Shown piece by piece: positions 744-18,080 of a stretch of DNA of 30,784 bases. The notes under the pieces are model-generated. The model worked only from the letters and a program-made list of their open reading frames with translations. It was not told where the DNA came from and made no database searches. The position numbers were made by a program, and so were the translations under genes. Within the stretch, counting starts at the first letter, position 1; each line of letters begins with the position of its first letter. The stretch comes from a virus (Duplodnaviria > Heunggongvirae > Uroviricota > Caudoviricetes). Location of the stretch: the IMG/VR virus record IMGVR_UViG_2854558644_000001; one strand, 5' to 3'.

Positions 744-763
744 ATGAAACTGACATTTCTTGG
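744..763. repeat. Junction palindrome copy 1
   Basis: atgaaa-ctgaca-tttctt-gg, intergenic between the Thg1 gene and ORF 789. Confidence 0.6.
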
Positions 764-788
764 TGCAATTTTAAAGGAGAATTATAGA

Positions 789-959
789 ATGAGCGATATT
801 TGTAAAGACAGAGAAGTTTTAAGACCTAAATACGAACAGTTTGTTCAGACCGAGAGAGGTAAAGAGTGGAAACATTTTTGGCAGAGTCAAACAGGTTCAG
901 AAAGAAGTGGAGATTTTGGTGATTATTTGTATGACTTTTATCCAGAAATGTTGCAGTAA
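789..959 (+). CDS. Small phage hypothetical protein (56 aa)
   Basis: SD aaggaga at 774-780 before ATG 789; the track extension to 693 crosses the regulatory repeats. Confidence 0.7.
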   Translation: MSDICKDREVLRPKYEQFVQTERGKEWKHFWQSQTGSERSGDFGDYLYDFYPEMLQ

Positions 960-970
960 GGAGAAAATAA

Positions 971-1219
971 ATGGCGAAAAAAGAAGGTTTTGGTGTAAGT
1001 CCAATAACAAATACAATCTACTATGGAACACAGGATACAGAAAAACATATGTGGATTGGACAGAAAATAGATGTTACAGATGATGTGATAGCTGCTGTAT
1101 ATGCATGGTTTATGGGCAATATGGAAGACTCAGAAGGCAAGAAAGAAGAATATCAGATTTCATATCCTAGCACAGAGTTTGAATTAGTAATGAGAAGAAA
1201 GAAAACAGAGAATATATAG
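971..1219 (+). CDS. Phage hypothetical protein
   Basis: SD aaggag, ATG, operon packing. Confidence 0.8.
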   Translation: MAKKEGFGVSPITNTIYYGTQDTEKHMWIGQKIDVTDDVIAAVYAWFMGNMEDSEGKKEEYQISYPSTEFELVMRRKKTENI

Positions 1220-1233
1220 TTAGGGGTGAGGAT

Positions 1234-1539
1234 GTGAGTATAGTGAATTTAAATTTACACACAATTGTATTGATTGTGTTGTGTCATTTAATTGGTGATT
1301 ATGTGTTGCAATGTGATTTTATTGCACAGACAAAAGGAAAGAATTGGTATCATTTATTTGTACATTGTGCATTATATTGTGTTCCATTCTTAATAGCATT
1401 CGGTTGGACATGGCAGTTGGCAGTAATCTTTATTTCACATCTGATTATTGATCCGTTGAAAGCAAGATGGAATAAGATTACATATACTACAGACCAGACA
1501 TTACATTATATAATCGGAATGCTTTATCTTATTGGTTAA
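1234..1539 (+). CDS. DUF3307-like membrane protein
   Basis: HLIGDYVLQ, HCALY and SHLIIDPLK motifs in a hydrophobic protein; exact start uncertain. Confidence 0.75.
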   Translation: MSIVNLNLHTIVLIVLCHLIGDYVLQCDFIAQTKGKNWYHLFVHCALYCVPFLIAFGWTWQLAVIFISHLIIDPLKARWNKITYTTDQTLHYIIGMLYLIG

Positions 1540-1602
1540 TCAACCAAACAATTTCCAATAAAAATGAAAATCGAATAGAGAATAAACATATAGGAGAGTC
1601 TT

Positions 1603-1800
1603 ATGTGGATTAACAGAACAAAATATGAAGTAGAAAAACTGAAATATAGACAGAGAATATCTTATTTAGAGAATCTTATCTGTCCATGTGAGTCACATGA
1701 TTATGTTGAAATAGATTACGAAATTATAGACGAACATAGTACAGTAAAACACATTTTCAGATGTAAGAAATGTGGAAAATTACACGATGAATTAAGTTGA
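1603..1800 (+). CDS. Small Cys/His (zinc-ribbon-like) phage protein
   Basis: SD aggag; CPCESH ... CKKCG. Confidence 0.75.
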   Translation: MWINRTKYEVEKLKYRQRISYLENLICPCESHDYVEIDYEIIDEHSTVKHIFRCKKCGKLHDELS

Positions 1801-1801
1801 T

Positions 1802-1823
1802 TGTAAATCACTGTTTCATTTGG
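1802..1823. repeat. Junction palindrome copy 2
   Basis: tgtaaa-tcactg-tttcat-ttgg, 1 nt after the stop at 1800. Confidence 0.6.
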
Positions 1824-1843
1824 AATTTTGAGGAGGTGAGAAT

Positions 1844-2338
1844 ATGGAAGTAAGAGTTAGATTATCGGATGCACATAATACAATTAAAGAATATGAAAAC
1901 TTGGGATACAGATTTATCGGATCAAGACAAGATATTGAATATGTAAACCTTTTCTTTGAACCAAAAGAGAATAATGTAACAGATATAAAATTTAACATCG
2001 GAGATTTCATAGAAAATAGAGATGGAAGAATTGGTTACATTTCAGATATATGTCATTGCGATGAATGTAAAAAGCGTGGGTTCTTTGAACCAACAATTCA
2101 GTATTCAGATGGTACAAGCGATTACATATCAAATTATTCTGTAAAATACGTTTCCAAAGACTATAAACAGATTGGTACTCAGAAGTTCGATAATGACTAT
2201 TATGAGAAAGAAATTGAAAGATTGAAACATCAATTAGAGATGGAGAAAAGTAAAAGTGCTTATTGGAAGATGAAAGCCAATGGTGAAGAACCTGTTTTAA
2301 TGGGTACAAGAGAAAGAATGATTCACATTCTTCGATAG
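1844..2338 (+). CDS. Phage hypothetical protein, possibly a fusion of two modules
   Basis: SD gaggaggtga; internal AGAGAATA at 1966. Confidence 0.8.
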   Translation: MEVRVRLSDAHNTIKEYENLGYRFIGSRQDIEYVNLFFEPKENNVTDIKFNIGDFIENRDGRIGYISDICHCDECKKRGFFEPTIQYSDGTSDYISNYSVKYVSKDYKQIGTQKFDNDYYEKEIERLKHQLEMEKSKSAYWKMKANGEEPVLMGTRERMIHILR

Positions 2339-2369
2339 TAACAGAGAATATACAAGTGAGGTGATATGT

Positions 2370-2672
2370 ATAGAAGTAATTGAAACAAATCTAATCATTG
2401 ATGAAAATAATTTCATTCGAGATCATCAATCAAGAGTAGTCGAAGCAGACAGTTGGGACGAATATTGTAAAGCACATAAGAATTATGATGGTAAAGCAGT
2501 TTTGTTCAAATCAAAAGTTATGAAAGGTAACAGCATCCAATCTAATTGTAAAATTTCAAATCTGAAATATGATGAAATGCATTTGTCTTGTAATATCACA
2601 AAATTAAAAGATAATGGAGAAGAAATCTTTACAGATAAAAGATTAGCATATCGAATAGTTGATCCGACTTAA
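2370..2672 (+). CDS. Phage hypothetical protein (proposed ATA start 2370; track GTG 2361)
   Basis: The GTG lies inside the SD AGGTGA (2359-2364); in-frame ATA is 5 nt downstream. Confidence 0.7.
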   Translation: MEVIETNLIIDENNFIRDHQSRVVEADSWDEYCKAHKNYDGKAVLFKSKVMKGNSIQSNCKISNLKYDEMHLSCNITKLKDNGEEIFTDKRLAYRIVDPT

Positions 2673-2720
2673 TCAAGTCAAAAAAAATTCCAAAACAAAT
2701 AACTGAATAGTGAATATATG

Positions 2721-2830
2721 AATGGGTGGAAGAACAGCATACCCTTGGGCTTTTGCGCTCAAAAATCACTGTTGAAGATAGATTTTCACATAAATTTATT
2801 TTCTGTGTTCCAGTCGTAAGACTGTTCAAA
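2721..2830 (+). other. Candidate structured leader RNA upstream of the replication operon
   Basis: Successive hairpins gggt/accc, ttgggc/gctcaa, tgaaga/ttttca, cagtc-GTAA-gactg; gaacag 2732 can pair with ctgttc 2822. Confidence 0.4.
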
Positions 2831-2878
2831 TATAGTTATCAAAAAATTTTATTACATATTATAAGGAGGATTCATTTA

Positions 2879-4090
2879 ATGAATTTTGAAATGACAGGAA
2901 AGTTAAGTATTCCAAAGGAGACAGAGAAGTTTCATCCTGATACCGAAAAAACTTATGAGTCTGGTTGGGTGCGTAAACAGTTAATGTTTAATGTAACTTG
3001 CGGAGACAACAGACACATGATGACTGCTACATCGGGTGCTTTTGCGGATGGTCATGGTGATGTGCACACATTTTCTAAGAATGGTGTAGATGAAAATGGT
3101 AATAAGGTTAAGGGTGAATTATTAAAGATTCCATTTAAGGAGAGACTTACATCATCAAAGTTAGCAGAAGTTGCAGAGTTCAAGAAGTTTATCTTTGATC
3201 TTGAAAAGCCAGGTCGTAGATATAAACTTGAAAAGGCTGCGGAAAAGGTTAAGGAAGGAACAAACCTTACTGATGAAGAGTTAAAAGAGATTGGTATTGA
3301 GAATGAAGCAGATGTAAATGCGGAGCTTGAAAAGAGTAACAAAAGAAGACATGAATTTATTTCAGAATGGGATTTCATCGACTTTATTAAGAAGGTTATT
3401 GATAGTGGAAAGTATTCTGATGAGAAGTTCTTCATTCGTGGAAATGGCGAGTATCGGTATTCAGACAAAAATCAGAGAGTTTATGAATCATATGTTCCTA
3501 ATCGTATTTATCTCGCAGCAGACGATGCAGAAGAGAGTTCAACAGCTACAATTAATGTCTTATTTAACTCAGAGAGTTTAGATGATATGAGTGTAGAAGA
3601 GAAGGGTAAGTATTATGTAAATGGATACATGATGGAATATGACAATAATCGTAAGGGTAATATTGCTGTGCCAGTTACAATTACAATTCCAGTTCCTTCA
3701 GACGATGCTGATGAAAAGGCTAAGAAGAGAGCAGAGTCAATCAAGCATAAATTTATTGTTGATGATGATACGTTCAAGGAATATGGTGCGGTCGTTAATA
3801 TGCTTAATGGTGCTCAGAAGACAGAGATTACAGAGGACATGCTTACTGATGAACAGAAGGATGACTTAGAGTGTGGTCTTATTACTATGGATGATATTCG
3901 TGCAGAACTTGGTGGAAGTGTATATGGTGAAAGAATTAGAGAGTATCAGTTCTTAAAGCCAGCAAAGGGATTCACTAAGGGCAGACAGGACACGGTATAT
4001 ACAGAAGATGATATGGTAATTAAGCCACTTGAAGAGGAGCTTCCAGAAGGAACAGAAGACCTCTTTGAAGATGACGATGATGAACTTTAA
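2879..4090 (+). CDS. Putative phage ssDNA-binding protein (SPbeta YorF position)
   Basis: SD aaggagga then ATG 2879; acidic tail DLFEDDDDEL; first gene of the replication module. Confidence 0.6.
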   Translation: MNFEMTGKLSIPKETEKFHPDTEKTYESGWVRKQLMFNVTCGDNRHMMTATSGAFADGHGDVHTFSKNGVDENGNKVKGELLKIPFKERLTSSKLAEVAEFKKFIFDLEKPGRRYKLEKAAEKVKEGTNLTDEELKEIGIENEADVNAELEKSNKRRHEFISEWDFIDFIKKVIDSGKYSDEKFFIRGNGEYRYSDKNQRVYESYVPNRIYLAADDAEESSTATINVLFNSESLDDMSVEEKGKYYVNGYMMEYDNNRKGNIAVPVTITIPVPSDDADEKAKKRAESIKHKFIVDDDTFKEYGAVVNMLNGAQKTEITEDMLTDEQKDDLECGLITMDDIRAELGGSVYGERIREYQFLKPAKGFTKGRQDTVYTEDDMVIKPLEEELPEGTEDLFEDDDDEL

Positions 4091-4163
4091 AAGAGATGAG
4101 GGCAAATGCCCTTCTCTCGATAATAACAAATAAAAATATGATTATTTAAAAGGAGATATACAT

Positions 4164-5309
4164 ATGGCATTTCAGAAACCAACAATTAATGTAATTAAAC
4201 CAGATATTAAGAACTTATCAATCTATCTTAGGAGTACAAAGAAATTCGGCAAGTCAACATTATTTAGAGATGTAATTCTTGAAAAGTATGGAGATCCATC
4301 AAGAGGTTTGCTTGTAGGTTGTGGAAATGAGAAAGGTTATAAGATGCTTGATAATCTGAATGCTACTCAGGTTAAGACATATAAGGATTTACAGGAATTA
4401 GCTGATTGGTTAATTAACGAGAAGGGTAAGGAACACAATATTGAAATGGTAGCTTTTGATACTGGTGATGAGCTTGCACTTATTGCAGATACAGAAACTA
4501 TTCGTCAAAGCAATGTTGAAAATCCTAACAAGAAGTGTAAGTCAATTAAGGCTGCATTTGGTGGATATACAGCAGGAGAGAAGTATTCTGCAAATGATAT
4601 TATTAAGCCTTATATGACAAAGCTTGAAGATGCAGGTTTTGGTGTATGGGTAATTGCACATACTAAATTTAAGACAATTAAGGAAAAGGGTGGTCTTGAA
4701 GAGGATGGATATATGCAGTTATCTTCAAATATGGGAGCAGATTATGAAGCTGCTTTTGGTGACATTTTTGATGTAACTCTTACAGGTGTTATTGATCGTG
4801 ACCTTGAAGAAAAGAAGGTTGGGGATAAAGTAAAGAAGTATGCAACAGATACAGTTCGTAAACTTTATTTTAGAGGAACAACACTTATTGATGCAGGTGG
4901 ACGTTTTGCAGATGGTGCAGTGCCAGAATATATGGTATTTGATAAGCCTAATATGGCGGCTGATTTTATTAGAGTAGTCGAGGAAGGTATGGAAAAGTCA
5001 AAGTCTACTATCGGTAAGAAGTCTACCCCTAAGAAGACAACGCCAGTTAAGGAAGAAAAGGTTACTGAACCTGATCCTATTGAGGAAGACGATATTGATG
5101 ATATCGACACACCAGTAGAGGATACAATTGAAGAGACAACAGAAACTTCTGCATATCCAGATGATTTAGATGCTGTTATTCGTAAGATGTATAAGGAGTG
5201 CAAAGATGCAGAACTCAAGGCTTCTGTTAAGAATGTAATTGCTGAGTATGGTAAGCTTAATGATGTCGATGAGGACGGATTAAAGAGAATCTATGACATG
5301 ATGAACTAA
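4164..5309 (+). CDS. AAA_24/Sak4-like P-loop ATPase (YorG-like recombination protein)
   Basis: Walker A variant STKKFGKST, Walker B AFDT, acidic low-complexity linker near the C-terminus. Confidence 0.75.
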   Translation: MAFQKPTINVIKPDIKNLSIYLRSTKKFGKSTLFRDVILEKYGDPSRGLLVGCGNEKGYKMLDNLNATQVKTYKDLQELADWLINEKGKEHNIEMVAFDTGDELALIADTETIRQSNVENPNKKCKSIKAAFGGYTAGEKYSANDIIKPYMTKLEDAGFGVWVIAHTKFKTIKEKGGLEEDGYMQLSSNMGADYEAAFGDIFDVTLTGVIDRDLEEKKVGDKVKKYATDTVRKLYFRGTTLIDAGGRFADGAVPEYMVFDKPNMAADFIRVVEEGMEKSKSTIGKKSTPKKTTPVKEEKVTEPDPIEEDDIDDIDTPVEDTIEETTETSAYPDDLDAVIRKMYKECKDAELKASVKNVIAEYGKLNDVDEDGLKRIYDMMN

Positions 5310-5321
5310 AAGGAGTAACAC

Positions 5322-5801
5322 ATGCTGGTTAAATGCAGACTGTGTGGTACTAAAGTAGATAGAAATGAAGCATTCAAAGTAGTAGTAGGTGGTAAGAACA
5401 CCTACTATTGCAATGAAGCTGAATATCAGAAAGTATTGCACGAAAAGGAAATAAAAGACAATACATACGAATGTATTAATCAGATATTTGGATATAAAGT
5501 TTTGAATTCTGCTTTGTTCAAAGAGATAAATCTTTTATTGGATGTGTATTCTTATGAATATATTTTGGCATATCTAACAGAGAATAAAGAATATATAACA
5601 AAGATTCTTGAAAAGGATTTTGTAAGTGAATATGCAAAAATTCGGTATTTCGCTGCGATACTTAAAAATAATTTGGCTGACTTTAGAATGAAAGAGCCTG
5701 AAAAACCGAGAAAAGTTGAAGTTGATATGCCAATTATGAATTATAAGAGAAGAAATAAACGTAGAAGTTTATCTGAAATTGAAGAAAGCGTAGGTGATTA
5801 A
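5322..5801 (+). CDS. Zn-finger protein (YorH position), possible helicase loader/initiator
   Basis: CRLCG...YYC; located between the ATPase and the helicase. Confidence 0.65.
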   Translation: MLVKCRLCGTKVDRNEAFKVVVGGKNTYYCNEAEYQKVLHEKEIKDNTYECINQIFGYKVLNSALFKEINLLLDVYSYEYILAYLTENKEYITKILEKDFVSEYAKIRYFAAILKNNLADFRMKEPEKPRKVEVDMPIMNYKRRNKRRSLSEIEESVGD

Positions 5802-7353
5802 CATAAGTGAATTTATTACAGGTGTAAAAGAGAAATATCCTGCTCAATTGTTAAAAGGTAGAATTGAGTACGAAGGTAATGTTATCAGTTGTTTTTTCAA
5901 GGATATGCTTCTGCTTGATGATACAACATTTGAACAAAAAGATTTTATTACAGCAGATGGTCTTTTTTATTTTTCATTGTTGAAAAATCTGAGAAAGAAA
6001 GGTTTTTATTCCTTAGATGAAATAACTATCTTATCAAATATGAACGAAGAAGTTATTGAGAAATTTGAGGATAAGGGTGGTTGGGATACAATTCAACACC
6101 AAATTGATATTATCAATACTCAGAATTTTGATACATATATAGATATTCTTTATAGAGAGAATATTATGTTGAACATGTATAAGGATGGTTTCAATCTTTT
6201 GCAGGAAATAACTGTAGGAGATAAAAAGGTAATACCTTTGAAATTGTTCAGAAAGATGACTGCCGAAGAAGTAACAGATTGGTATGAAGCTCGTATATCT
6301 AGTTATGGAACTGGTTATAGCAGTAAAATACTTGAAGAGGAAGAAATTGATTTTGATGATGAATTCATAGAGTCTTGTAAAGATGGCGAAGAAAATGGTG
6401 TACCATTTGATATTGCTGGCTATGATAAAAATGGTGAAGAGATGAACTGTTTTCCGTTTTTATCACGACAGATTATGGGATTGCTTGAAGGAACACTTAC
6501 AATGATGGGTGGATTCTCAAGTGCAGGTAAATCTACTTGGTGGATTACAATTCTTATGGCACTTCTGCATTATGATCGAAAAATTCTTATTATCTCCAAT
6601 GAGGAGAATATCAAAAAATTCAAGATTAAATTCATGGTTTGGTTGCTTGGAAAACGTAATAGATATTTTAAACTCACAAAAAAGAAAATGGCATCTGGCG
6701 ATATTAATGCTGAAAGCAGAGAACAGTTAACAGATGTACAGAAATTTTGGAGAGAGAATTATAAGGGCAGAGTTAAATTTATTTCCATTAACGATGCTGA
6801 CATGCGAGTTGTAAAGAAAAAAATTCGTGAGAATGTATTGAGATATGGGTATGACACTGTATTATATGACACATTTAAGATACAAGAAGGAGATTTTTCA
6901 TCTGCAAGACAAGACTTATCTCTCGTAAGAGATAGTCGTGAATTAGACAAATTAGCAAAGAAATACAATTTGATTATGCTTGCTTCTGTACAGTTAGCAG
7001 AGTATATGAAAGGAAAGTTATTCTTGGATGCAAGCTGTTTGAGTAATGCTAAACAGATTAAGGAAATATTGGAAAATCTATTCCTAATGAGAACTGTATA
7101 CGCAGAGGAATTGGATGAAAAGAGTAAGTTTTATTGTCGTCCATTCCGATTGAAAAAGGTCAATGATAAATGGATAGAAGAAGAGTATAAACCCGATCCT
7201 AATGCCGTATGGCGTATGGTTTTTGTTGAAAAAACAAGAAATGGCAACAATTCCAGTGATACAGGTGTTGCTTATCTTTTGAAGTTTTCAGGCGACCATT
7301 GCATTTTCAGAGAGACTTGTCAGTGTAGACCTCGACATGGAGAAATAAAATAA
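5794..7353 (+). CDS. DnaB-like replicative helicase (YorI-like); start possibly ATA 5803
   Basis: Walker A GGFSSAGKS, Walker B YDTF, ASVQL, VEKTRNG. Confidence 0.88.
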   Translation: MINISEFITGVKEKYPAQLLKGRIEYEGNVISCFFKDMLLLDDTTFEQKDFITADGLFYFSLLKNLRKKGFYSLDEITILSNMNEEVIEKFEDKGGWDTIQHQIDIINTQNFDTYIDILYRENIMLNMYKDGFNLLQEITVGDKKVIPLKLFRKMTAEEVTDWYEARISSYGTGYSSKILEEEEIDFDDEFIESCKDGEENGVPFDIAGYDKNGEEMNCFPFLSRQIMGLLEGTLTMMGGFSSAGKSTWWITILMALLHYDRKILIISNEENIKKFKIKFMVWLLGKRNRYFKLTKKKMASGDINAESREQLTDVQKFWRENYKGRVKFISINDADMRVVKKKIRENVLRYGYDTVLYDTFKIQEGDFSSARQDLSLVRDSRELDKLAKKYNLIMLASVQLAEYMKGKLFLDASCLSNAKQIKEILENLFLMRTVYAEELDEKSKFYCRPFRLKKVNDKWIEEEYKPDPNAVWRMVFVEKTRNGNNSSDTGVAYLLKFSGDHCIFRETCQCRPRHGEIK

Positions 7354-7371
7354 TAACTTTTGGAGTGATAT

Positions 7372-8400
7372 ATGTTAGCAGATATTAAGAAAGAATTGAT
7401 AAATCACCCAGATAAGCTTAAAGATGTGTTAGAACATTTTGGCTATTGTAACATAGTAATTCGTCCTAAATATATATCTTTTGGACGAGATGAAAAGTCA
7501 TCAAAGAAAAGTATAGTAATCAATCTTGAAAATAACGAGTATTTGTACACCATTGATTATGCGAGAAATATAAGAAAAGATATTTTTTCATATATCATTG
7601 AGCAAAGAAAGGTCGAATTTATAGATGTCCTTAATGAAGTAAGACATGCATTAGGAATTACAGATTATTATGATTTCTTTGATAGTAAAGGAATTTTTGG
7701 AGGATTTTATGAAAAGATTAGAAAGCGAAGAACTAATAAAGTCAATATATACGATGATTCCATCTTAGATTGCTATGTTAATTGTGGGAATACAAGGTTT
7801 CTTGCTGATAATATATCACTTCTTTCACAAAAATTTTTTAACATAAAGTACGATGTAGAATCACAAGGAATTGTTATTCCCATAAGAAATCAATTTGGAC
7901 AGTTAATGGGTGTTAAGGAACGATTCAATTATGATGTTCCTGATGGTGAAATGAAATATTTTTATGCTGTTCCTTGCAGCATGAGCCAAACATTATTTGG
8001 ATATTCTCAGAACTATGAATTTTTAGTAGATAATACTATCTATATCTTTGAAGCTGAGAAGAGTTGTATGCAGTGCTATTCATACGGAATAAGAAATTGT
8101 ATATCTCTTGGAAGCGGATCTATTTCTATTCAACAAGTCAAAATGCTTCTTGAATTAAATCCCAAACGAATAATCTTCCTACATGATGTAGGATATGGAC
8201 TTGAAAATATTATGAGAAATATTGATATGGTCAAAAATTATTCCAGGTTCACAGAAGTTGAACTTGGATATTGGAGTTATTTTGGTCGAGGATATAAAAA
8301 TAAAGTTTCGCCATCTGATTTAGGAAAAGAGTGTTTAGAAAATATTTTACAAAATGAGATAACAATGATTGGAGATGAGGATGACGAAGACGAATTATAA
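7372..8400 (+). CDS. TOPRIM DNA primase (YorJ-like)
   Basis: IVIPIRN...GVKER, YIFEAEKS, ISLG, FLHD; directly after the helicase. Confidence 0.8.
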   Translation: MLADIKKELINHPDKLKDVLEHFGYCNIVIRPKYISFGRDEKSSKKSIVINLENNEYLYTIDYARNIRKDIFSYIIEQRKVEFIDVLNEVRHALGITDYYDFFDSKGIFGGFYEKIRKRRTNKVNIYDDSILDCYVNCGNTRFLADNISLLSQKFFNIKYDVESQGIVIPIRNQFGQLMGVKERFNYDVPDGEMKYFYAVPCSMSQTLFGYSQNYEFLVDNTIYIFEAEKSCMQCYSYGIRNCISLGSGSISIQQVKMLLELNPKRIIFLHDVGYGLENIMRNIDMVKNYSRFTEVELGYWSYFGRGYKNKVSPSDLGKECLENILQNEITMIGDEDDEDEL

Positions 8401-9985: not shown

Positions 9986-9986
9986 T

Positions 9987-12900
9987 ATTTCAGACATTGA
10001 ATTAATAAAAAAAATAATTCCTACTCTTACATTTAAGTTTCCATATTCACCAAAAGAATATGAAAAGAATTTATATCTTGAAAATTATCATTGTCATAAA
10101 GATTTTAGCAATACATCTACACCAGATTGTGCTGAATCTATTAATGTCTATGCAGAAAGAATTCATGAATTTGGCACAAAATGTTTGTATTCTGGTGAAC
10201 ATGGTTCGCAAGGTAATCAGTTTCAAGTCTATAAGGTCGCAGAGAGTGAACATCTGAAATATATTCATTCTTCTGAAGTTTATTGGGTAAAAGATAGAAA
10301 AGAAAAAGATAGAGCAAATTGTCATATGATTATTGCAGCTAAAAATGCTGAAGGTCGTGGAGATATTAATTTTGCTTTATCAATGGCTAATATTGATGGA
10401 TATTATTATAAGCCACGTATTGATTTAGAATTATTATTTAATATTCCAAAAGACAATGTGATTATAACGTCAGCTTGCGTGGCAGGTTGGAATTATGAAG
10501 ATGCAGAAGATATATGGCTTAAAATACATAAATATTTTGGAGATAATTTCTTTTTAGAAGTTCAGTATCATAACACTGATAAACAGAAAGAACTTAATAA
10601 AAAGATTTTAAGAATTGCAAAAGAACATAATATCCAGATTATATGTGGTCTTGATAGCCATTATGTTAAAGAAGAAAATGCAGTTAAACGTGACCAGATT
10701 CTGAAATATAAAAACATTAATTATCCAGATGAGGAAGGTTGGTATCTTGATTATCCTGACACTCAAACCGTAATTAAAAGATTTGAAGAACAAGGTGTTT
10801 TAAACAGAGAAGAAATATATAGAGCAATTATGAATACAAATGTTTTTGTGACAGAATGTGAAGAAATTGTTCTTGATAGAAAATTTAAGATTCCGAGTGT
10901 TTACAAAGGAAAAACCTATAAAGAAAAATGTAAAATTTACAAAGATGTTCTTAATAAAGCTTATGCAAAAGAAAAAGAAAAATCAAAAGAAAAAGCCGAT
11001 GGTATTCGATATGAAGCAAAGCAAGTTATGGAAGCTGGTGTTGTGGATTATTTCTTAACAAGTAAGGCTATTGTAGATGACGCAATAAAAAATGAAGGTG
11101 GTATTTTAACAACTACTTCAAGAGGTAGTGCTGCATCATTTATAACAAATAAACTTTTAGGACTTACAACTGTTGATAGATTCAATGCTGATATTCCTAT
11201 TTATCCTGAACGATTCTTGACTAAGGAACGTGTATTAGCTGGTCAGATGCCAGATATTGATTTGAATGTTGCTACACAAGAACCATTTGTTAAAGCAGCA
11301 AGAAAATTATTAGGGGAACATGGCTGTTACCCATTGATGGCAATAGAAAAACTTAAAGAAAAGGCAGCTTGGCAGTTATATGCAGGTGCAAACGAAGTTA
11401 AACCAGAGGATGCGAATCAGATTTCAAAGTATCTTGATGAATATAATAAGGCATTAAAATATGCGGATGAAGATGAAAAGGATGATATTCATGTAGAAGA
11501 TTATATCCCAAAAGAGTATACAGAGTTATTCAAACAGAGTAGTGAATACCAAGGGATCACAATCAATTTGAAAGTACATGCTTGTGGTCATTTTATCTTT
11601 GATGGTGATATTCGTAGAGAAGTAGGATTAATAAGTGCTGTTTCTGGATCAACTGGCAAAAGAACAGTATGTGCAGCTATTGAAGGTGGTTATCTTGATG
11701 AATTCGGATATGTAAAAGAGGATTTTCTTATTGTAGATAGTGTTTATCTTACATATAAATTCTTTCATAGCATTGGTATGGAAGTTCCGACATTTGATGA
11801 ACTAAGACATATGATTGATGGTGATAAAAAAACATGGGATATTTATGCAAATGGTATTACATGTTGTATTAATCAGTGTGAGAAAGAGGCGACTACTAAT
11901 CGAGTGAAGAAGTATAAACCGCAAAATTTAGCGGAGTTAAGTAGCTTCATTGCAGCAATTCGACCAGGTTTTGCGTCATTACTTAGTACATTCTTGAATC
12001 GTGAACCATATACTACAGGCGAAAAAAAGATTGATGATTTATTATCTGATACTGCGCATTTTATGATTTATCAGGAATCTATTATGAAAGTATTATCATT
12101 CTTGGAATTGAAAATGGCAGAAACATATGGAGTTATTAAAAATATTTCAAAAAAGAAATATAAATTACATCCTGAAATGTTAAAAGAATTACAGGAACGA
12201 TTAATAGAAGGTTGGAAAGCAGAAATCGGTAAGACAGATAATTTTAATAATGTTTGGAATGTAATAGAGTCTTCTGGATCATACGCATTTAATTCTCCAC
12301 ATGCTTATTCAATGGGTGGAGATTCTGCCTATCAAGCATGGTTTAAAGCACATCATACTAAAACATTTTATGAAGTAGCAATCAATCATTATCAAGAAAA
12401 GAATAAAAAGGATAAGATAGATGCTCTTGTTAAAGAAGCAATTAAATTTTGGGGATATAAACTAGGCGATTATGAATTTGGTGCAGATAACAGAAAAGTG
12501 ACAATTAATGAAGAGAATAAATTAATATATCCAAATTTATCAAGTGTAAAAGGCTTTGGTGAAGGGGTTGTTGATACTCTTTATGAATTAGGACAGTCGA
12601 AATATAAAACATTTACTGATGTATTAACTGCACTATTTTCAAATTCAATTAATAAGACCATTGTAAATAAACTTATTAGAATCAATTATTTTAAGAAATA
12701 TGGTGATGTAAATACTTTACTTGAGATTACAAGACTATATGATTTGTTAAATGGTGCGAAGCAGATCTCCAAAGATAAAGCTGAAAAGAATAATATTCCA
12801 TTTGATATACTTGTAAAACATGGAAATGAGACAGCTAAACAATTCAATAAACTTGACTCAGAACAAATTATTAAGGAATTGATTTCTAATATTCCTTATA

Positions 12901-13289
12901 GAGAATTAACTTTAAAGGAAAGGCTTGATAATCAGAGAGAAGTTCTTGGTATTGTCAGTGACTCGGATTCAAAAGTAAGCAAACGTCTATATTATGTTTC
13001 TGAACTTGATATTAAAAAATCTATTGTAAATGTTCATCTTTTTGAAATCTATAGTGGTAAAACACGAGAAGTAAAAATGTGGACAAGTCAGTATAATCGA
13101 AATCCATTTGATCTAGGTGCAATTCTATATATTATTTCCCTTGAAAAGAAGAATAAAAAAGAGCCAACTGGTGAAATAAATCCAGTTACAGGTAAGAAAA
13201 TTTATAAAGAAGTACCTAATAAATTTGAATTTTGGTTAAGCAAATTTGTAATAAAAAATGATATTGAGGAGGACGAAGACGATTTTTAA
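9987..13289 (+). CDS. dnaE: DNA polymerase III alpha subunit, phage DnaE-type (proposed ATT start; track GTG 9960)
   Basis: PHP motifs YHCH, EH, EVY, DSHY; RGSAA, PERF, PDID, HACG, KEDFL, RPG, YQE, FNSPHAYS. Confidence 0.95.
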   Translation: MSDIELIKKIIPTLTFKFPYSPKEYEKNLYLENYHCHKDFSNTSTPDCAESINVYAERIHEFGTKCLYSGEHGSQGNQFQVYKVAESEHLKYIHSSEVYWVKDRKEKDRANCHMIIAAKNAEGRGDINFALSMANIDGYYYKPRIDLELLFNIPKDNVIITSACVAGWNYEDAEDIWLKIHKYFGDNFFLEVQYHNTDKQKELNKKILRIAKEHNIQIICGLDSHYVKEENAVKRDQILKYKNINYPDEEGWYLDYPDTQTVIKRFEEQGVLNREEIYRAIMNTNVFVTECEEIVLDRKFKIPSVYKGKTYKEKCKIYKDVLNKAYAKEKEKSKEKADGIRYEAKQVMEAGVVDYFLTSKAIVDDAIKNEGGILTTTSRGSAASFITNKLLGLTTVDRFNADIPIYPERFLTKERVLAGQMPDIDLNVATQEPFVKAARKLLGEHGCYPLMAIEKLKEKAAWQLYAGANEVKPEDANQISKYLDEYNKALKYADEDEKDDIHVEDYIPKEYTELFKQSSEYQGITINLKVHACGHFIFDGDIRREVGLISAVSGSTGKRTVCAAIEGGYLDEFGYVKEDFLIVDSVYLTYKFFHSIGMEVPTFDELRHMIDGDKKTWDIYANGITCCINQCEKEATTNRVKKYKPQNLAELSSFIAAIRPGFASLLSTFLNREPYTTGEKKIDDLLSDTAHFMIYQESIMKVLSFLELKMAETYGVIKNISKKKYKLHPEMLKELQERLIEGWKAEIGKTDNFNNVWNVIESSGSYAFNSPHAYSMGGDSAYQAWFKAHHTKTFYEVAINHYQEKNKKDKIDALVKEAIKFWGYKLGDYEFGADNRKVTINEENKLIYPNLSSVKGFGEGVVDTLYELGQSKYKTFTDVLTALFSNSINKTIVNKLIRINYFKKYGDVNTLLEITRLYDLLNGAKQISKDKAEKNNIPFDILVKHGNETAKQFNKLDSEQIIKELISNIPYRELTLKERLDNQREVLGIVSDSDSKVSKRLYYVSELDIKKSIVNVHLFEIYSGKTREVKMWTSQYNRNPFDLGAILYIISLEKKNKKEPTGEINPVTGKKIYKEVPNKFEFWLSKFVIKNDIEEDEDDF

Positions 13290-13812
13290 CAAATATAAGT
13301 ATACAGATAAGGAAATGGAAGAGTTAATATCTTCCATTACAATCCTTATTGACACAAGGGAGAAAGTCAATTCCCACATTACAGATTACTTTGATCGAAA
13401 AGGAATTTCATATAAAAAGAAAGCACTCGGTTATGGAGATTATTCGTTCATGATTCCTGCAAATGAGAAGTTATCCATACCTCGTGATTTGTATTTTAAT
13501 ACAACATGTGTCATTGAGAGAAAAGCTAGTCTTGAAGAAATAAGCAATAATTTGACAAAAGAGCGTGACAGATTTGAAAAAGAATTATGTCTTGCACCAA
13601 AAACTAAAGTGTTACTAATTGAAAATGCTTCTTATGAGGATATTGCAACAGGGAATTATGATACAAAGTATAATCGAAAATCTTTTATTGCATCAATCCA
13701 TAGCTTTTGGTTCAAATATAACATTCCAGTTATGTTTATGCCAAACAATCAATATTCAGGACTGTTTATCAGAGAGTATTTTGAATATTTCTTAAAGAAT
13801 TATCTTCGATAG
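13282..13812 (+). CDS. ERCC4/XPF-family nuclease, possible resolvase (proposed ATT start; track ATG 13258)
   Basis: IDTREK, GDYSF, IERKAS. Confidence 0.85.
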   Translation: MFNKYKYTDKEMEELISSITILIDTREKVNSHITDYFDRKGISYKKKALGYGDYSFMIPANEKLSIPRDLYFNTTCVIERKASLEEISNNLTKERDRFEKELCLAPKTKVLLIENASYEDIATGNYDTKYNRKSFIASIHSFWFKYNIPVMFMPNNQYSGLFIREYFEYFLKNYLR

Positions 13813-13841
13813 AGAGAATAATACAGTAGGAGGTAAAAGTC

Positions 13842-14102
13842 GTGAATTATGAAACTCAGTATTATAAAAATATCCCTCTAAATTTGGTTTCAAGAAAATA
13901 TAAAAATATGAAAGCAAAGAGATTTGTGATTAATCATACAAATCAAAATGTATGGATTCCCAATAAACATCTTGAAAAAGATGGAACTATTAAAGGTACA
14001 GAAAATATTGATTATGTATTTAGAAAGTCTATAAGACAATTAGAGTTAGCTGGTATCACACAACCAATAATAGGAATTAAAAGAAAGAGTAATGTTATAT
14101 GA
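13842..14102 (+). CDS. Phage hypothetical protein
   Basis: SD aggaggt, GTG start. Confidence 0.75.
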   Translation: MNYETQYYKNIPLNLVSRKYKNMKAKRFVINHTNQNVWIPNKHLEKDGTIKGTENIDYVFRKSIRQLELAGITQPIIGIKRKSNVI

Positions 14103-14314
14103 AAATTTTAACACGATTATTTACGAAAAATCTTACTAAAGTTCCTCTGTTGTGGATTACATTCAATTGGAAGCTGTTTAAAAAGAATGGTGTAAAAGGT
14201 TCTTGTATGTGTAATATTCATCCTTCCCTAAAGGATGATGAACACATCAAGACCATAATGCAAGAGTTATGTAACTATATAAGAGAGAATTATGATATGG
14301 AGGAGATTATATGA
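14099..14314 (+). CDS. Phage hypothetical protein
   Basis: ATGA overlaps at both ends. Confidence 0.7.
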   Translation: MKILTRLFTKNLTKVPLLWITFNWKLFKKNGVKGSCMCNIHPSLKDDEHIKTIMQELCNYIRENYDMEEII

Positions 14315-14685
14315 GTGATTACAGATATATGAGAGTTATTCGATGCAAAGTCGATTTGAATAAAATATCAGTATCTTCATTGTGGGACTTAGAAGATAAA
14401 TTCACTGATTTATTTGATATGAATCTACCAAGATATTTTGAAAAAGCTGTTGCAGAGAACGATGAGTATTTAGATTATGTTCTTGAATCAAAAATTGACG
14501 ACAATGGTGGCGAATGGGGAAAATCACGATACCTTACTGAGAATGAAGCGAATAAATATCTATTATTATTTAGTGAGATATATCCAGATGTGAAAAGAGA
14601 CGATTTAAGAGCCGTAGAGTTTTGTTGGTATGATTGCAGCGAAGCTCCTTTATATTATGATGTAGACGAAGAAGAGTGGTTATAA
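14311..14685 (+). CDS. Phage hypothetical protein
   Basis: SD ggagga, ATGA overlap. Confidence 0.8.
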   Translation: MSDYRYMRVIRCKVDLNKISVSSLWDLEDKFTDLFDMNLPRYFEKAVAENDEYLDYVLESKIDDNGGEWGKSRYLTENEANKYLLLFSEIYPDVKRDDLRAVEFCWYDCSEAPLYYDVDEEEWL

Positions 14686-14688
14686 AAG

Positions 14689-14709
14689 CCAAGGAAAGAC
14701 GGATTTTAT
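14689..14709. repeat. Junction palindrome copy 3 (reverse orientation)
   Basis: cca-aggaaa-gacgga-ttttat; reverse complement ataaaa-tccgtc-tttcct-tgg; 3 nt after the stop at 14685. Confidence 0.6.
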
Positions 14710-14741
14710 GTCTGTCCTTTATATGAAAGAGAGGTACAAAT

Positions 14742-15296
14742 ATGGTTTATGGAGTATTTGGTGGTTGTTATAGTGACTGGTATGTAGTCGGATATTTCAA
14801 CAATCGTCAAGATGCAGAAAAATATTGCTGTTTATGTGGGGATGGTGACTATGTAAAGCCATTAAAAGATTTAACTAATGAAAAAGATTTATCAAAAGTA
14901 TCATTAAAATACTGTCATGAAGTTTTATTTGATTGTAAAGATGATGAAAACAGATGGGTTATGAGAGAAGAACCTGAAAGGTATAATTGCTATATTGATA
15001 ATGATTTAAGATGTAATAGCGTAAGACAAGGTACGTTACTTAAAAATAACTGGGTATGCTTTATTGTCAATATTGATCATGATGATAGGAGATTAGCAGA
15101 AAAAATTGCTCAAGATTATTTAGCTGAACTTCGTTCTTATGGAGATGGGAAAATTTACGAAAAGAATATTGAATTGATGAATGATAAATTCGTAGCACCA
15201 TTCAAAGAAAAAGAGAGAATAAGAAAAGAAGAAGAAATTAAACAAAAAGAACTTGCAGAATTAGAAAGATTAAAAGCTAAATACGAAACAAAATAA
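14742..15296 (+). CDS. Phage hypothetical protein with C-terminal coiled coil
   Basis: SD gagaggt; KE-rich tail. Confidence 0.8.
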   Translation: MVYGVFGGCYSDWYVVGYFNNRQDAEKYCCLCGDGDYVKPLKDLTNEKDLSKVSLKYCHEVLFDCKDDENRWVMREEPERYNCYIDNDLRCNSVRQGTLLKNNWVCFIVNIDHDDRRLAEKIAQDYLAELRSYGDGKIYEKNIELMNDKFVAPFKEKERIRKEEEIKQKELAELERLKAKYETK

Positions 15297-15309
15297 ACGA
15301 CAGTTTCAT
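15292..15309. repeat. Junction palindrome copy 4
   Basis: aataaa-cgacag-tttcat overlapping the stop at 15294-15296. Confidence 0.6.
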
Positions 15310-15347
15310 CTAAGAATGCCAGAAGATGTAAACATTCTTAGACGAAA
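15304..15347. terminator. Hairpin between convergent genes
   Basis: tctaagaatg (15309-15318) / cattcttaga (15333-15342), extended by tttc/gaaa. Confidence 0.5.
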
Positions 15348-15368
15348 TATAATAGACTATTTGTTTTA

Positions 15369-16265
15369 TTATGGTTTTGAATTTTCCATGATATCGTGTC
15401 TTACATACATAAATCCGAGTTCAGATTCAATTAAATGACGATATGATGGAATTATATTGTTAGTTAGTAGATTTTTAAAATATTCTATTTTTCCTGGATC
15501 ATCATCTTCCACAAACGTTGTTCCGTATGTAGAGATAACTAAATATCCAACGCATAATATTGTTTCGTTTTTCATAAATGTCATTTTATAACTTGCAATA
15601 GAGCCAAGTGTTGAATAGCGTTTATCATTTTCACTTATCCAATAATGTCCTTCTTTAACGAGATTTTCTTTATTATTTTCAAAATGAGATGAAAGATTAT
15701 TGGTTATTATATAGTTAAAATATGAGTGGAAATTATCATCCATAATAAAATTATTTAAGTCGTTATTTATTGTACTATTTTTTCTTGTTATCCATTGCCA
15801 GTTTGAATTGTTCTCTGGATATTGATATATAAATGAAACAGAAAATGAGCTTAATGCAATTTCGGTAATATTGGATATTAATAATTTAATGTTTGAACAA
15901 ATTTGTTCTACAAATTCATGAGGGTTATATAATAGTACGTCCTTTTTATAATCAGGGAGGATGTCTACTTTTAATAAATTTCTTTTAATCTTTTCTACCT
16001 CTATGGTACTATTAAGAATTTTTTGAGACATTTGGTATTTTTGATAATTGTCTAAATCTTCATGTAGCTTTTGATTATTTCTTTCTTCTTTTAAAGATAA
16101 AGTAACTACTTGATAAATGATAAAAATAATGGCAATTATAATAAAAACTATCTTAGAAGTTTCATTAAACACTGCTAAATTGTCAATTAAAGGAAAAATA
16201 GTTGCTGGAACAACTGTAAAGAAAATGTTTTTGATTACCAATTTATGATTTTTTAATTTATTCAT
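15369..16265 (-). CDS. Inverted moron: two N-terminal TM helices, coiled coil, possible GAF-like domain
   Basis: Only long antisense gene in the prophage; SD aaggggga then ATG 16265; hydrophobic N-terminus; visibly AT-rich. Confidence 0.8.
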   Translation of the reverse strand: MNKLKNHKLVIKNIFFTVVPATIFPLIDNLAVFNETSKIVFIIIAIIFIIYQVVTLSLKEERNNQKLHEDLDNYQKYQMSQKILNSTIEVEKIKRNLLKVDILPDYKKDVLLYNPHEFVEQICSNIKLLISNITEIALSSFSVSFIYQYPENNSNWQWITRKNSTINNDLNNFIMDDNFHSYFNYIITNNLSSHFENNKENLVKEGHYWISENDKRYSTLGSIASYKMTFMKNETILCVGYLVISTYGTTFVEDDDPGKIEYFKNLLTNNIIPSYRHLIESELGFMYVRHDIMENSKP

Positions 16266-16286
16266 ATGTATATCCCCCTTATGTGA

Positions 16287-16315
16287 AATATAAAACATAT
16301 ATAAAAAGATTGCAA
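16287..16315 (-). promoter_or_regulatory. SigA-type promoter of the moron
   Basis: TTGCAA-17 nt-TATATT on the minus strand. Confidence 0.6.
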
Positions 16316-16346
16316 GCAGAAGATTTATTTAATATAAAATCCTTAA

Positions 16347-16364
16347 ATGAAATTTTAAGTTCCA
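16347..16364. repeat. Junction palindrome copy 5 (degenerate)
   Basis: atgaaa-ttttaa-gttcca, on the far side of the moron promoter. Confidence 0.45.
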
Positions 16365-16459
16365 CAGATTCCAATTGCTTTTTAATATGGTGTTAGATTA
16401 TATCTATTATCCGTTGGCAATTTACATGTTATTGAAGTAACAAGAAAGGAGAACAAAAA

Positions 16460-16996
16460 ATGGACACAATTGTTATAAATTTATTTGGAGAACCATCAGC
16501 AGGTAAGAGTACCTGTGCAATGGATATTACAGCACAATTAAAAAGACACGGTATCAATGCTGAATATGTTTCAGAGTTTGCCAAGGATAAGGTATATGAA
16601 AATAATGGTGAAGTATTTAAACACCAGGAATATTTATTTGGCAAACAATCATTCAAGATGGGTAGAGTTAAGAATAAAGTGCAGGTTATGGTTGTTGATT
16701 CACCATTAATCTTATGTGCCGTATATAACACTGACGAAGTGTTGGGAGAAGACTTTAATAAGACTGTACTGAATGTGTTTAATTCATACAATAATAGAAA
16801 TTATTTGCTCACAAGACACCATTCTTATGAAAACGAAGGAAGATTCCAGAATGAAGACGAAGCAAAAGAAGTGAGAAAAGAAATTATTGATAAGTTAAAT
16901 CAGTACAATATTAAATATGAAGAGATTGCTTCTACAGACTCAAATTGTGAATACATAGTAGAAGAAATTATGGAGGAAATTAAAAATGAACAGTAA
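16460..16996 (+). CDS. AAA_28/NadR-type P-loop NTPase, possible nucleotide kinase
   Basis: GEPSAGKST, EYVSEFAKD, VVDSPL. Confidence 0.75.
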   Translation: MDTIVINLFGEPSAGKSTCAMDITAQLKRHGINAEYVSEFAKDKVYENNGEVFKHQEYLFGKQSFKMGRVKNKVQVMVVDSPLILCAVYNTDEVLGEDFNKTVLNVFNSYNNRNYLLTRHHSYENEGRFQNEDEAKEVRKEIIDKLNQYNIKYEEIASTDSNCEYIVEEIMEEIKNEQ

Positions 16997-17147
16997 AGGA
17001 CATTTATTTATTAGTTTAGGAAAATCAGCAATTAGAGTAATTGGTGGAATTGTAACATTAGTGAATGGTTCGATTATTCCATTAGCAGTAGGAATTATTG
17101 TTGCTGAAATTGGTGGTGTGTTAGAAGAATTGGTTGATGAGAGATAA
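16986..17147 (+). CDS. Small hydrophobic protein (53 aa), absent from the ORF track
   Basis: SD ggagga; MNSKGHFIISLGKSAIRVIGGIVTLVNGSIIPLAVGIIVAEIGGVLEELVDER. Confidence 0.7.
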   Translation: MNSKGHLFISLGKSAIRVIGGIVTLVNGSIIPLAVGIIVAEIGGVLEELVDER

Positions 17148-17148
17148 C

Positions 17149-17169
17149 AAGAAACCATTATTTCTTTGG
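17149..17169. repeat. Junction palindrome copy 6
   Basis: aagaaa-ccatta-tttctt-tgg, 1 nt after the stop at 17147. Confidence 0.6.
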
Positions 17170-17185
17170 AAGAAAGGTGATTGAA

Positions 17186-17374
17186 ATGAAGAAAATATTA
17201 AAATCAATAATGCTTACATTGTTATGGTTTCTGTTAGCTACAATGGTTTGTATTGCTGTTAGAGGAATTGTTTACATACTCGGCTTATTAATTGGAGAAA
17301 CAATGGCAGTGTTATTGATAACTATATTGTTACTAATATTCATAGCAATATTTATTTATAAAGAATTTTTATAG
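17186..17374 (+). CDS. Small two-TM membrane protein
   Basis: AGGTGA-5 nt-ATG; two hydrophobic segments. Confidence 0.75.
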   Translation: MKKILKSIMLTLLWFLLATMVCIAVRGIVYILGLLIGETMAVLLITILLLIFIAIFIYKEFL

Positions 17375-17383
17375 GAGGAATAA

Positions 17384-18064
17384 ATGGGAACAATTACAAT
17401 TTTACCAGAAACAACAAAGAATCCTATTACACTAATGGGAATGAGGGCTGGCACATGTTGGAATGCCAATATAACAGATAATGAGAAGAATTATAAACGT
17501 GGTCTTGACTGTATCAAGTCTGGACATGGACGTGTTATGGAATTTGTAAATGTAGAAATGATCATTGATGGATATTCTGCGAAAATTTTGAGAGAGTATT
17601 ACACACATATCGGTGGTTCACCTTCACGTTTGCAAGCAAGCACAAGATATATTGATTATTCTAAGGGTAATGGATTTGACTATGTAACACCACAATCAAT
17701 CAGCAAAGATGAAGATGTTGCTGCGACATGGCATAGTGTTATGAGATATGTCAACACTAATATTCAACATCTAATTAATAATGGAGTTCCAATTGAAGAT
17801 GCGACAATGTTACTTCCGTTAGCATACTCTTCAAAAATGGTGGACAAACGTAATCTTAGGAGTCTTGTTGATATGAGCAGAGTAAGAACATGTAGCAGAG
17901 CATATCACGAGTACAGAAAAATGTTCAATGACATTTGTAATGCTTTAAGAGAATATTCAGATGAATGGAAGTGGATTGTAGATAATCTTTTCCATGCAAA
18001 ATGTGAAGAAGTTGGATATTGTACGGAAAGTAAATCTTGTGGCAGAAGACCAAAGAGACAGTAA
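17384..18064 (+). CDS. thyX: FAD-dependent thymidylate synthase, divergent motif
   Basis: GHGRVMEF, QASTRY, LPLAY, NLRSL, RTCSRA; RHR-X7-S replaced by THI-X9-S. Confidence 0.85.
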   Translation: MGTITILPETTKNPITLMGMRAGTCWNANITDNEKNYKRGLDCIKSGHGRVMEFVNVEMIIDGYSAKILREYYTHIGGSPSRLQASTRYIDYSKGNGFDYVTPQSISKDEDVAATWHSVMRYVNTNIQHLINNGVPIEDATMLLPLAYSSKMVDKRNLRSLVDMSRVRTCSRAYHEYRKMFNDICNALREYSDEWKWIVDNLFHAKCEEVGYCTESKSCGRRPKRQ

Positions 18065-18080
18065 ATGTCTATTTTGTAGG
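18060..18080. repeat. Junction palindrome copy 7
   Basis: agtaaa-tgtcta-ttttgt-agg overlapping the thyX stop. Confidence 0.45.

Follow-up and report, generated by a model that had tools for sequence, protein, structure and literature searches.

The right arm of a large prophage carries a short palindrome repeated between its small genes. What do these copies do: are they sites at which gene cassettes are exchanged, targets of a DNA-binding protein, signals in the messenger RNA, or chance matches in AT-rich DNA? The stretch analyzed is a viral DNA of 30,784 nucleotides (IMG/VR record IMGVR_UViG_2854558644_000001; hereafter the window), in which a sequence-only reading had listed seven copies of WWDAAA-N6-TTTYWT at gene boundaries and had proposed that they divide the variable region into cassettes, in the manner of an integron. 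As revealed by comparison with related genomes, the cores of this element (AAA-N6-TTTC with the spacer) are points where mosaic blocks are joined. In our estimate there is about an even chance that the palindromes are conserved boundary elements between cistrons where cassettes are joined and exchanged through short-homology recombination; such elements would be a compact variant of the promoter-early stem-loops (PeSLs) of T4-type phages.

The nearest record available for comparison, G001, is an IMG/VR genome of 159,485 bp, rated 99% complete. Since G001 ends at ∼28944 in window coordinates, the window forms the right arm of a temperate prophage of ∼160 kb. The host is a Lachnospira-like gut Firmicute; the host-flank gene is 87-100% identical in metagenome-assembled genomes (MAGs) labelled Clostridiales, Eubacterium and Lachnospira. 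The window was compared with G001 and with 81 related loci collected in two IMG/VR scans, and five complete relatives, G001 and four further genomes that align over just 9-23% of G001, were scanned for the motif. A megablast search of the window against GenBank phages gave a single 160-nt match in thyX and otherwise nothing useful.

Joints between mosaic blocks

The window and G001 share blocks of similarity separated by unrelated DNA. The blocks span positions 741-972 (91% identity), 1832-2877 (95%), 14684-15307 (99.7%), 16438-17165 (97%), 17384-18057 (77%) and 19247-28944 (93%). Inspected base by base, three of the edges (741, 15307 and 17165) coincide with palindromes, and those at 14684 and 18057 lie just to the left of two others. 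Similarity to G001 begins at 741, 3 nt to the left of the copy at 744, and the DNA upstream of it is unrelated; identity ends at 17165, within the palindrome with the spacer CCATTA. The block that starts at 14683-14684 is common to G001 and ∼20 other loci. A three-gene block (971-1831) is missing from G001, where its flanks are only 4 nt apart; its left edge comes right after a stop codon and its right edge right before the Shine-Dalgarno (SD) sequence of the gene at 1844-2338.

The region between the ERCC4-type nuclease gene and the ligase gene (13.8-18.1 kb) is hyperplastic: the 81 loci show 77 gene orders, drawn from a repertoire of small gene families, and the ends of alignments between relatives and the window accumulate at almost every gene border. 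Downstream of a gene for a 184-amino acid protein, at least 10 different genes were found in ∼20 relatives, and the junction TAAACGACAGTTTC with a TTTGGAAGATTGGAGG-type linker was retained in all of them. The core with the spacer CGACAG is followed in relatives by at least 12 different genes; counted as families, it joins 10 upstream with 13 downstream, and the CCATTA core joins 11 upstream with 14 downstream. The TTGGAC, CTAAAC, TGTTCA, GGTTGA, CCGTTC and GACGGA cores likewise join many contexts. When all intergenic 12-mers were ranked by the number of families combined on both sides, the cores stood near the top, together with a terminator-plus-palindrome composite and the AGAGAATA box described below. 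The same downstream gene was found with and without a palindrome upstream of it, hence the element belongs to the joint and not to the gene. Contigs of another sample join the CGACAG core and the inserted block that follows it in the window to yet another upstream gene. Low-coverage contigs from four public runs were sparse, with a few loose ends at known borders, and no joints were seen in them.

The arms of the palindrome are common to all loci, and the 6-nt spacer is particular to each locus. Seventeen of the 23 cores of G001 recur exactly in at least one of the four divergent genomes, against 5.3 expected (p = 3e-7), a conservation ∼3 times that of other intergenic 13-mers. The expectation derives from GC-matched intergenic 13-mers in a per-13-mer control, which replaced an 'any 13-mer island' control that proved uninformative, because AT-rich intergenic regions nearly always hold some matching 13-mer. 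The 12 cores common to G001 and G006 are collinear without exception, and partner cores carry the same spacer from one genome to another. From this exact and collinear recurrence across divergent genomes it follows that the spacers are preserved locus by locus. In most genome pairs the 30 nt on both sides of the core are at background identity, and AAATTTAACTTTC, found in five genomes, is preceded on its left by four different flanks and followed by four or five different genes. The edges of identity around the core lie outside it and are dispersed over ∼20-30 nt on each side (left, -20 to +3; right, 13 to 42), so that the point of crossover cannot be read from them.

The window has a G+C content of ∼31% and is coded nearly entirely on the + strand. 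Its left part contains a Thg1-like enzyme followed by a row of small genes, and then a replication module (Sak4-like annealing protein, DnaB-like helicase, primase, DHH phosphoesterase and DNA polymerase III alpha). The ERCC4-type nuclease and the small genes of 13.8-18.1 kb follow, ending in thyX. To the right of thyX lie genes for an NAD-dependent ligase, a guanylate kinase, NrdD/NrdG and a tyrosine integrase, and then the HD-GYP gene of the host. The ERCC4-type nuclease gene (13258-13812) directly borders the left edge of the hyperplastic region. The junctions and blocks of the window are as follows.

742-763, + strand: junction palindrome, spacer CTGACA, 13/16 match to the ideal form; followed by linker and SD sequence, then a 56-amino acid gene (789-959)
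971-1831, + strand: block of three genes (971-1219, 1234-1539 and 1603-1800) with the junction at its 3′ end; absent from G001
1800-1821, + strand: junction palindrome of the GTAAA class, spacer TCACTG; begins 1-2 nt past the stop at 1800, and 22 nt separate its end from the start at 1844
14690-14711, + strand: junction palindrome of type GACGGA, degenerate (TTTT for TTTC); left border of the 184-amino acid cassette
14742-15296, + strand: cassette with the 184-amino acid hypothetical gene (family 8); 99.7% identical to G001, neighbours unrelated
15290-15311, + strand: junction palindrome of type CGACAG; its left arm includes the stop codon 15294-15296
15308-16347, - strand: inserted 'moron' block with an antisense 309-amino acid gene (15369-16298) and a hairpin at ∼15310-15341; replaces genes that relatives have here
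16348-16447, + strand: 3′ remnant (last ∼100 nt) of a 144-amino acid gene (family 20); intact in relatives, truncated here by the insertion
16460-17147, + strand: cassette with an AAA_28/thymidylate-kinase-like gene and an overlapping 53-amino acid gene, always adjacent in relatives
17147-17168, + strand: junction palindrome of type CCATTA, 14/16 match, the best copy of the window; begins at the last base of the stop, next ATG at 17186
17177-18064, + strand: cassette with a small membrane-protein gene and thyX
18058-18079, + strand: degenerate junction of type TGTTCA (TGTCTA...TTTT); overlaps the stop codon of thyX, with 15 nt left to the start of the ligase gene
20493-20514, + strand: 12/16 match inside the gene 20126-20842, conserved in G001; probably no junction

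The palindrome at 14690-14711 overlaps a second hairpin at 14698-14716. The right side of the palindrome at 15290-15311 is cut after GTTTC by the moron insertion. Judging from the intact gene of the relatives, the moron ends on its right at an illegitimate break within that gene and not at a junction site. The sites thus mark joints between cassettes, as had been proposed, given that in relatives their cores are joined to many genes; the proposal fails for the right edge of the moron.

A palindrome with a six-nucleotide spacer

The pattern WWDAAA-N6-TTTYWT, taken as first written, is not enriched in the window: 5 sites with 9 strand matches were found, against 4.72±2.83 in shuffled sequences, and with one mismatch allowed the 85 matches are at chance level (78±12 expected). 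The exact matches are those at 744, 15292 and 17149, and two unlisted ones at 18375 and 20495, both inside genes. The listed copies at 1802 and 14692 carry one mismatch each, that at 18060 carries two, and 16347 does not match. It had been conceded that such a core is weak in AT-rich DNA; indeed it has no significance within the window, and the case is sound only when relatives are included. The aligned copies gave a sharper ideal form, the 22-mer CCAAGAAA-N6-TTTCTTGG, and this form is over-represented 3-8 times in the five complete relatives, specifically at N6.

The half-sites GAAA-N6-TTTC occur 36 times in G001, where ∼9 are expected, and 22-37 times per genome in the five relatives, again against ∼9. 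In G001 the spacings N4, N5 and N7 show no excess and N8 is marginal; in the four further genomes N5 and N7 are never above expectation, and N4 is modestly raised in two. Sites with at least 12 of 16 matches to the 22-mer number 23 in G001 (2.7 expected), 24 in G002 (4.2) and 14 in G006 (4.1). Twenty-one of the 36 sites of G001 are intergenic, where intergenic DNA makes up 11% of the genome (p = 8e-12); most lie 0-8 nt past a stop codon and 14-29 nt ahead of the next start, and they fall mostly in the + strand early/middle region (74-131 kb and 145-147 kb). The density is ∼8 times higher in the phage than in the host: 69 sites per Mb against 8 per Mb in a 1.7-Mb host MAG (14 sites with up to 3 mismatches). 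That host MAG yielded no near-perfect copy of the palindrome and no dif-like best match.

Six of the seven listed copies are genuine. Those at 14692, 15292, 17149 and 18060 are orthologous copies of junction types that recur among the relatives compared (spacers GACGGA, CGACAG, CCATTA and TGTTCA), and those at 744 and 1802 fit the sharpened motif. The seventh, at 16347, is spurious, being the break inside the truncated gene, and the copy that had been placed at 14689 is real with its true position at 14692. Proximity to a stop codon holds for five copies (1802, 14692, 15292, 17149 and 18060), as the sequence-only reading had stated; the copy at 744 lies 66 nt from the preceding stop. The '(N)GG' that it had seen after the sites is real as well, and is the outer end of the right arm TTTCTTGG. 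That the palindromes are chance AT-rich matches is scarcely credible: the lack of enrichment of the first pattern in the window and the one spurious site would be expected of chance, but the N6-specific excess in five genomes, the intergenic placement and the conservation of the cores refute it for the sharpened motif.

The element has a constant layout, consisting of stop codon, palindrome, a short linker of the TKGRA type, SD sequence and start codon. Its arms measure 8 bp at most, the left one often being only AAA plus the stop codon, and a frequent variant, the GTAAA class, breaks the stem. An RNA-level intercistronic element would be expected to sit, as the palindrome does, at a constant place after a stop codon and ahead of the following SD. 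Such an element, either a small hairpin or a pair of arms similar to the 3′ tail of the 16S RNA (UUUCUU) and its complement (AAGAAA), would serve to adjust re-initiation, to cover the SD or to label a processing site. A shared host ribosome would also account for identical arms across genomes, and in some folds of the junctions the right arm pairs with the SD region. Yet when ten junctions were folded, eight were no more stable than shuffled sequence (z-scores ∼0) and no consistent structure emerged. The arms are kept as sequence, without consistent covariation; an Rfam search matched no family; and such an element would explain neither the conservation of the spacers nor the loss of the palindrome before the same gene. 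We therefore consider an RNA-level role very unlikely.

A scan for sigma-70 promoters gave 105 hits, no excess over the 108 expected, with no -35/-10 pair at the junctions and no promoter near most sites. In a terminator scan there was likewise no excess, nothing was tied to the sites, and a separate GC hairpin was present only at the border of the GACGGA type. LexA (Cheo) boxes, CodY boxes, ECF sigma -35 elements, N4-type hairpin promoters and Type I/XmnI-like restriction targets were discarded on the basis of their consensus sequences.

Proposed cassette exchange and other possible roles of the palindrome

The repeated element that the palindrome most resembles is the PeSL of T4-type phages, an intergenic element found at the borders of indels and replacements (Arbiol et al. 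2010, PMC2839356; Comeau et al. 2014, PMC4122927). Both have the order stop codon, motif, SD and start. They are concentrated in hyperplastic regions, with small genes of unknown function as neighbours, and mark the places where relatives differ by insertions, deletions and replacements; there they are thought to serve as patches of homology for modular shuffling. In contrast, PeSLs are ∼100 bp long, with a strong sigma-70 promoter and a terminator hairpin, whereas the element of the window measures 22-40 nt and lacks both a recognisable promoter and a stable hairpin; the early sigma-70 promoter and the stable stem-loop of PeSLs were looked for at the junctions and were not found. Copies of a PeSL are alike, and here the locus-specific spacers are kept in sequence and in order. 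Another trait of PeSLs is that they recombine with one another to give mini-circles. Moreover, PeSLs belong to virulent T4-like phages and the present elements to temperate phages of Firmicutes. What is new relative to PeSLs is therefore the much smaller size, the lack of promoter and terminator, the temperate Firmicute setting, and spacers that are locus-specific, conserved and collinear.

The short conserved sequences at gene borders of lambdoid phages are comparable too, being flanked by unrelated alleles and read as points of crossover, as here. These boundary or linker sequences, known from the modular theory of Botstein and from HK620/HK97, are not known to be palindromes of a shared architecture, and each genome has far fewer of them.

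If the palindromes act as such joints, co-infecting or resident relatives would swap cassettes by short-homology ('relaxed') recombination within conserved patches of 13-40 nt. The enzyme would probably be the Sak4-like annealing protein of the phage itself, or RecA of the host. The former is a candidate because single-strand annealing proteins recombine short and diverged homologies (PMC5499656, PMC8093625).

4164-5309, + strand: gene for the Sak4-like single-strand annealing protein (Pfam AAA_24; phrog_124, E = 1.6e-19)

The element most likely would persist because it also serves expression or binding. From centre to centre, its inner half-sites (GAAA and TTTC) are ∼10 bp apart, about one helical turn, which together with the conservation of the arms as sequence fits a dimeric DNA-binding protein; such a protein may be the reader of the common arms.

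Several observations weigh against this interpretation. About 65% of the variable junction types have no palindrome, and many are bare stop-SD-start joints or carry other conserved elements. A point in its favour, the presence of the palindrome in none of 11 always-adjacent gene pairs and in 42 of 120 variable pairs (p = 0.016), is limited by the always-adjacent control pairs, which mostly have gaps too short for the motif. The sequence-only reading had asked whether breakpoints fall inside the motif; joints do lie at palindromes in the hyperplastic region, but there is no excess across G001, where breakpoints are found in 46% of the palindromic intergenic regions and in 41% of others of similar size (p = 0.8, a weak test given the strong divergence of the genomes). 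Gene borders in general hold 203 of the 298 alignment breakpoints of G001, and selection for intact genes would suffice to confine the breakpoints that survive to such borders. At 13-16 nt, the smallest core held in common offers little length for efficient homologous recombination, and pure homology leaves the common palindromic arms at a fixed spacing unexplained.

The absence of a genome-wide excess of breakpoints would be natural if the palindrome were only a regulatory DNA site, that is, an operator for a dimeric phage protein whose overlap with joints is incidental, both being placed at gene borders. The strict N6, the sequence conservation of the arms and their helical phasing agree with an operator, as do the phage-specific density and the location next to stops in co-directional gene rows of a temperate phage. 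There are two precedents for such a site. The stoperators of Cluster A mycobacteriophages, reportedly described by Brown et al. in 1997, are said to be asymmetric, orientation-dependent 13-mers of one consensus bound by the L5 gp71 repressor. They share with our element the temperate phage, the 20-30 copies of a short site in small gaps near stops and the co-directional gene rows; unlike them, the sites here are palindromes with locus-specific spacers. The second precedent is MrpR (YopR) of the Bacillus prophage SPbeta, a repressor with a recombinase fold that has lost most catalytic residues and binds the 15-bp SPBRE motif, with nine peaks in promoter regions (PMC10516654). SPbeta, like the phages studied here, is a large temperate phage of a Firmicute with a repeated intergenic element and recombinase-fold proteins besides the integrase, and MrpR illustrates that the extra recombinase-fold proteins present in every genome of our set could act as repressors. 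The phages compared here differ in that 20-37 sites lie between cistrons and the recombinase-family proteins have kept their catalytic residues; these proteins also diverge strongly between genomes, unlike a shared repressor.

What counts most against an operator-only role is the spacer. In a multi-copy operator of one shared consensus, such as a stoperator or SPBRE, bases that the protein does not contact would be free to vary; here the spacers differ between loci and are conserved within a locus, and a protein that reads the arms alone would not need them to be. The presence of the same gene with and without the site, and the absence of a sigma-70-type promoter near most sites, point in the same direction. 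The dimeric-repressor alternative, which the sequence-only reading had put forward itself, can thus apply to the arms and leaves the conservation of the spacers unexplained. We regard a purely regulatory role as unlikely, yet plausible.

Inverted arms around a 6-bp spacer, with spacers unique to each locus, conserved and collinear, could also be the sites of a dedicated site-specific recombination system. In such a system one protein would read the shared arms, and at least 20 collinear locus-specific spacers, serving as 6-bp overlaps, would let only like-numbered sites exchange their cassettes. That the palindrome itself is the minimal unit common to unrelated contexts agrees with this, and so does the presence of extra recombinases. 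The only recombinase of the window is the integrase.

27568-28764, + strand: prophage integrase (tyrosine recombinase), at the right end of the prophage

Further tyrosine recombinases elsewhere in the prophage had been suggested as a check, and they exist: Pfam hidden Markov models (HMMs) revealed, in every genome, two genes of the Phage_integrase family in addition to the integrase, of which one belongs to the early region and the other to the structural region. In G001 they lie at 84891-85922 (+ strand) and 47055-48089 (- strand), i.e. at 85 kb and 47 kb, with counterparts in G002-G006 at conserved relative positions, and the proteins retain the catalytic residues R, HxxR, H/W and Y. A tblastn search with the G001 proteins had suggested that these recombinases are absent from the relatives; the HMMs showed this to be an artefact of sensitivity. 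About 440 nt downstream of the early-region gene lies a gene for a MazF-like endoribonuclease (G001 86363-86728; L014:6363-6728).

These recombinases do not follow the sites. The early class comprises two architectures that cannot be aligned and the structural class three very divergent subtypes, and the arms are the same in all genomes; among the genomes compared, no cognate recombinase conserved alongside the sites was found. The architecture of the sites is ambiguous. The spacing of 6 bp is strict, but with arms of at most 8 bp, the left one frequently reduced to AAA and the stop codon, they are shorter than the classic lox, FRT and dif sites, in which arms of 11-13 bp surround an overlap of 6-8 bp. 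A likeness of the right arm and linker to the XerC arm of Bacillus dif was dropped, as it needs an indel. Cassettes move between slots, taking the upstream junction along (family 22 is found both before and after the 14-15 pair). Together with the dispersed identity edges, which do not fix a crossover, the many joints without a site and the host genome without a dif-like best match, this makes dedicated site-specific recombination distinctly unlikely.

The nearest models for such a system would be engineered. Heterospecific lox/FRT sites likewise have common inverted arms and differing, incompatible spacers, and a segment is swapped between two unlike sites. Their cassette exchange is engineered, with 13-bp arms, 8-bp spacers and a known enzyme, whereas the arms here do not exceed 8 bp and the mechanism is proposed only.

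The integron, the model originally invoked, shares with the window promoterless small genes, each with an imperfect inverted repeat near its stop, and a variable cassette content. The attC sites of integrons are ∼57-141 bp long and form a bulged hairpin with R′′/L′′-L′/R′ boxes, the R′′/R′ consensus being RYYYAAC/GTTRRRY. The sites tested here are of 18-22 bp, do not fold stably, and have arms of the CCAAGAAA/TTTCTTGG type in place of that consensus; moreover, no IntI adjoins the array, there is no attI/Pc, and the order of the sites is fixed. No recombinase gene of any kind adjoins the array, the integrase at 27568-28764 being 9.5 kb off (features specific to IntI were not examined). Considering also the divergent recombinases, the dispersed edges, the palindrome-free joints and the illegitimate edge of the moron, an integron-like mechanism based on a tyrosine recombinase is not supported.

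Little is known about the large temperate phages that infect abundant gut Firmicutes, in which accessory genes for defence, counter-defence and host takeover turn over fast. The turnover described here is orderly: fixed, collinear palindromic landmarks stay, and the genes between them are exchanged. If the landmarks promote this exchange, they would account for the ability of these phages to draw on a common pool of genes while keeping each gene whole. With the cores as a simple handle, the cassettes present in metagenomes could also be catalogued and the phages engineered. Should a dedicated enzyme after all read the arms, with the spacers setting the choice of partner, this would be a new kind of natural recombination system, a natural recombinase-mediated cassette exchange in which cassettes are swapped between phages without deletion or scrambling of the resident genome.

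Other elements near the junctions

The AGAGAATA box occurs in ∼90 copies in G001, nearly always on the transcribed strand; in the window it is found at 1207, 1577, 2343, 13813, 20078 and other positions. It often lies just past a stop codon, 7-10 nt before the SD, and may be a phage-specific promoter or leader element. A longer form, AGAGAATAATACAGTAG, is itself a junction element, flanked by many alternative genes to its left and to its right.

The intergenic element with the most family combinations, 8-13 upstream and 8-10 downstream, is a composite of ∼90 nt at the left border of the variable region (L009:4770-4890, G001 144.77-144.89 kb), partly present in the window at 14686-14741. It consists, in this order, of the AGAGAATA box, the GC hairpin GCCC-ATAAATA-GGGC, GTTTC and the GACGGA palindrome, whose spacer pairs with a downstream TCCGTC.

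Long AT-rich palindromes, ACACTATATATAGTGT, which are similar to NrdR boxes, occur at 680-729 in the window and at ∼129.29 kb in G001, and in many loci upstream of family 11. They precede some small genes, sometimes right before a junction palindrome.

Mosaicism was also observed within the ligase gene (18095-20074), in which many relatives lose or regain similarity at 18331-18366 and 19217-19247. The C-terminal part from ∼19247 onwards is 93% identical to G001, which suggests domain-level mosaicism in an essential gene. Finally, two phage tRNA genes, Gln (TTG) and Lys (TTT), lie in the early region at L014:11816-11966 (G001 91.8-92.0 kb), and the short conserved patches around them recur in relatives.

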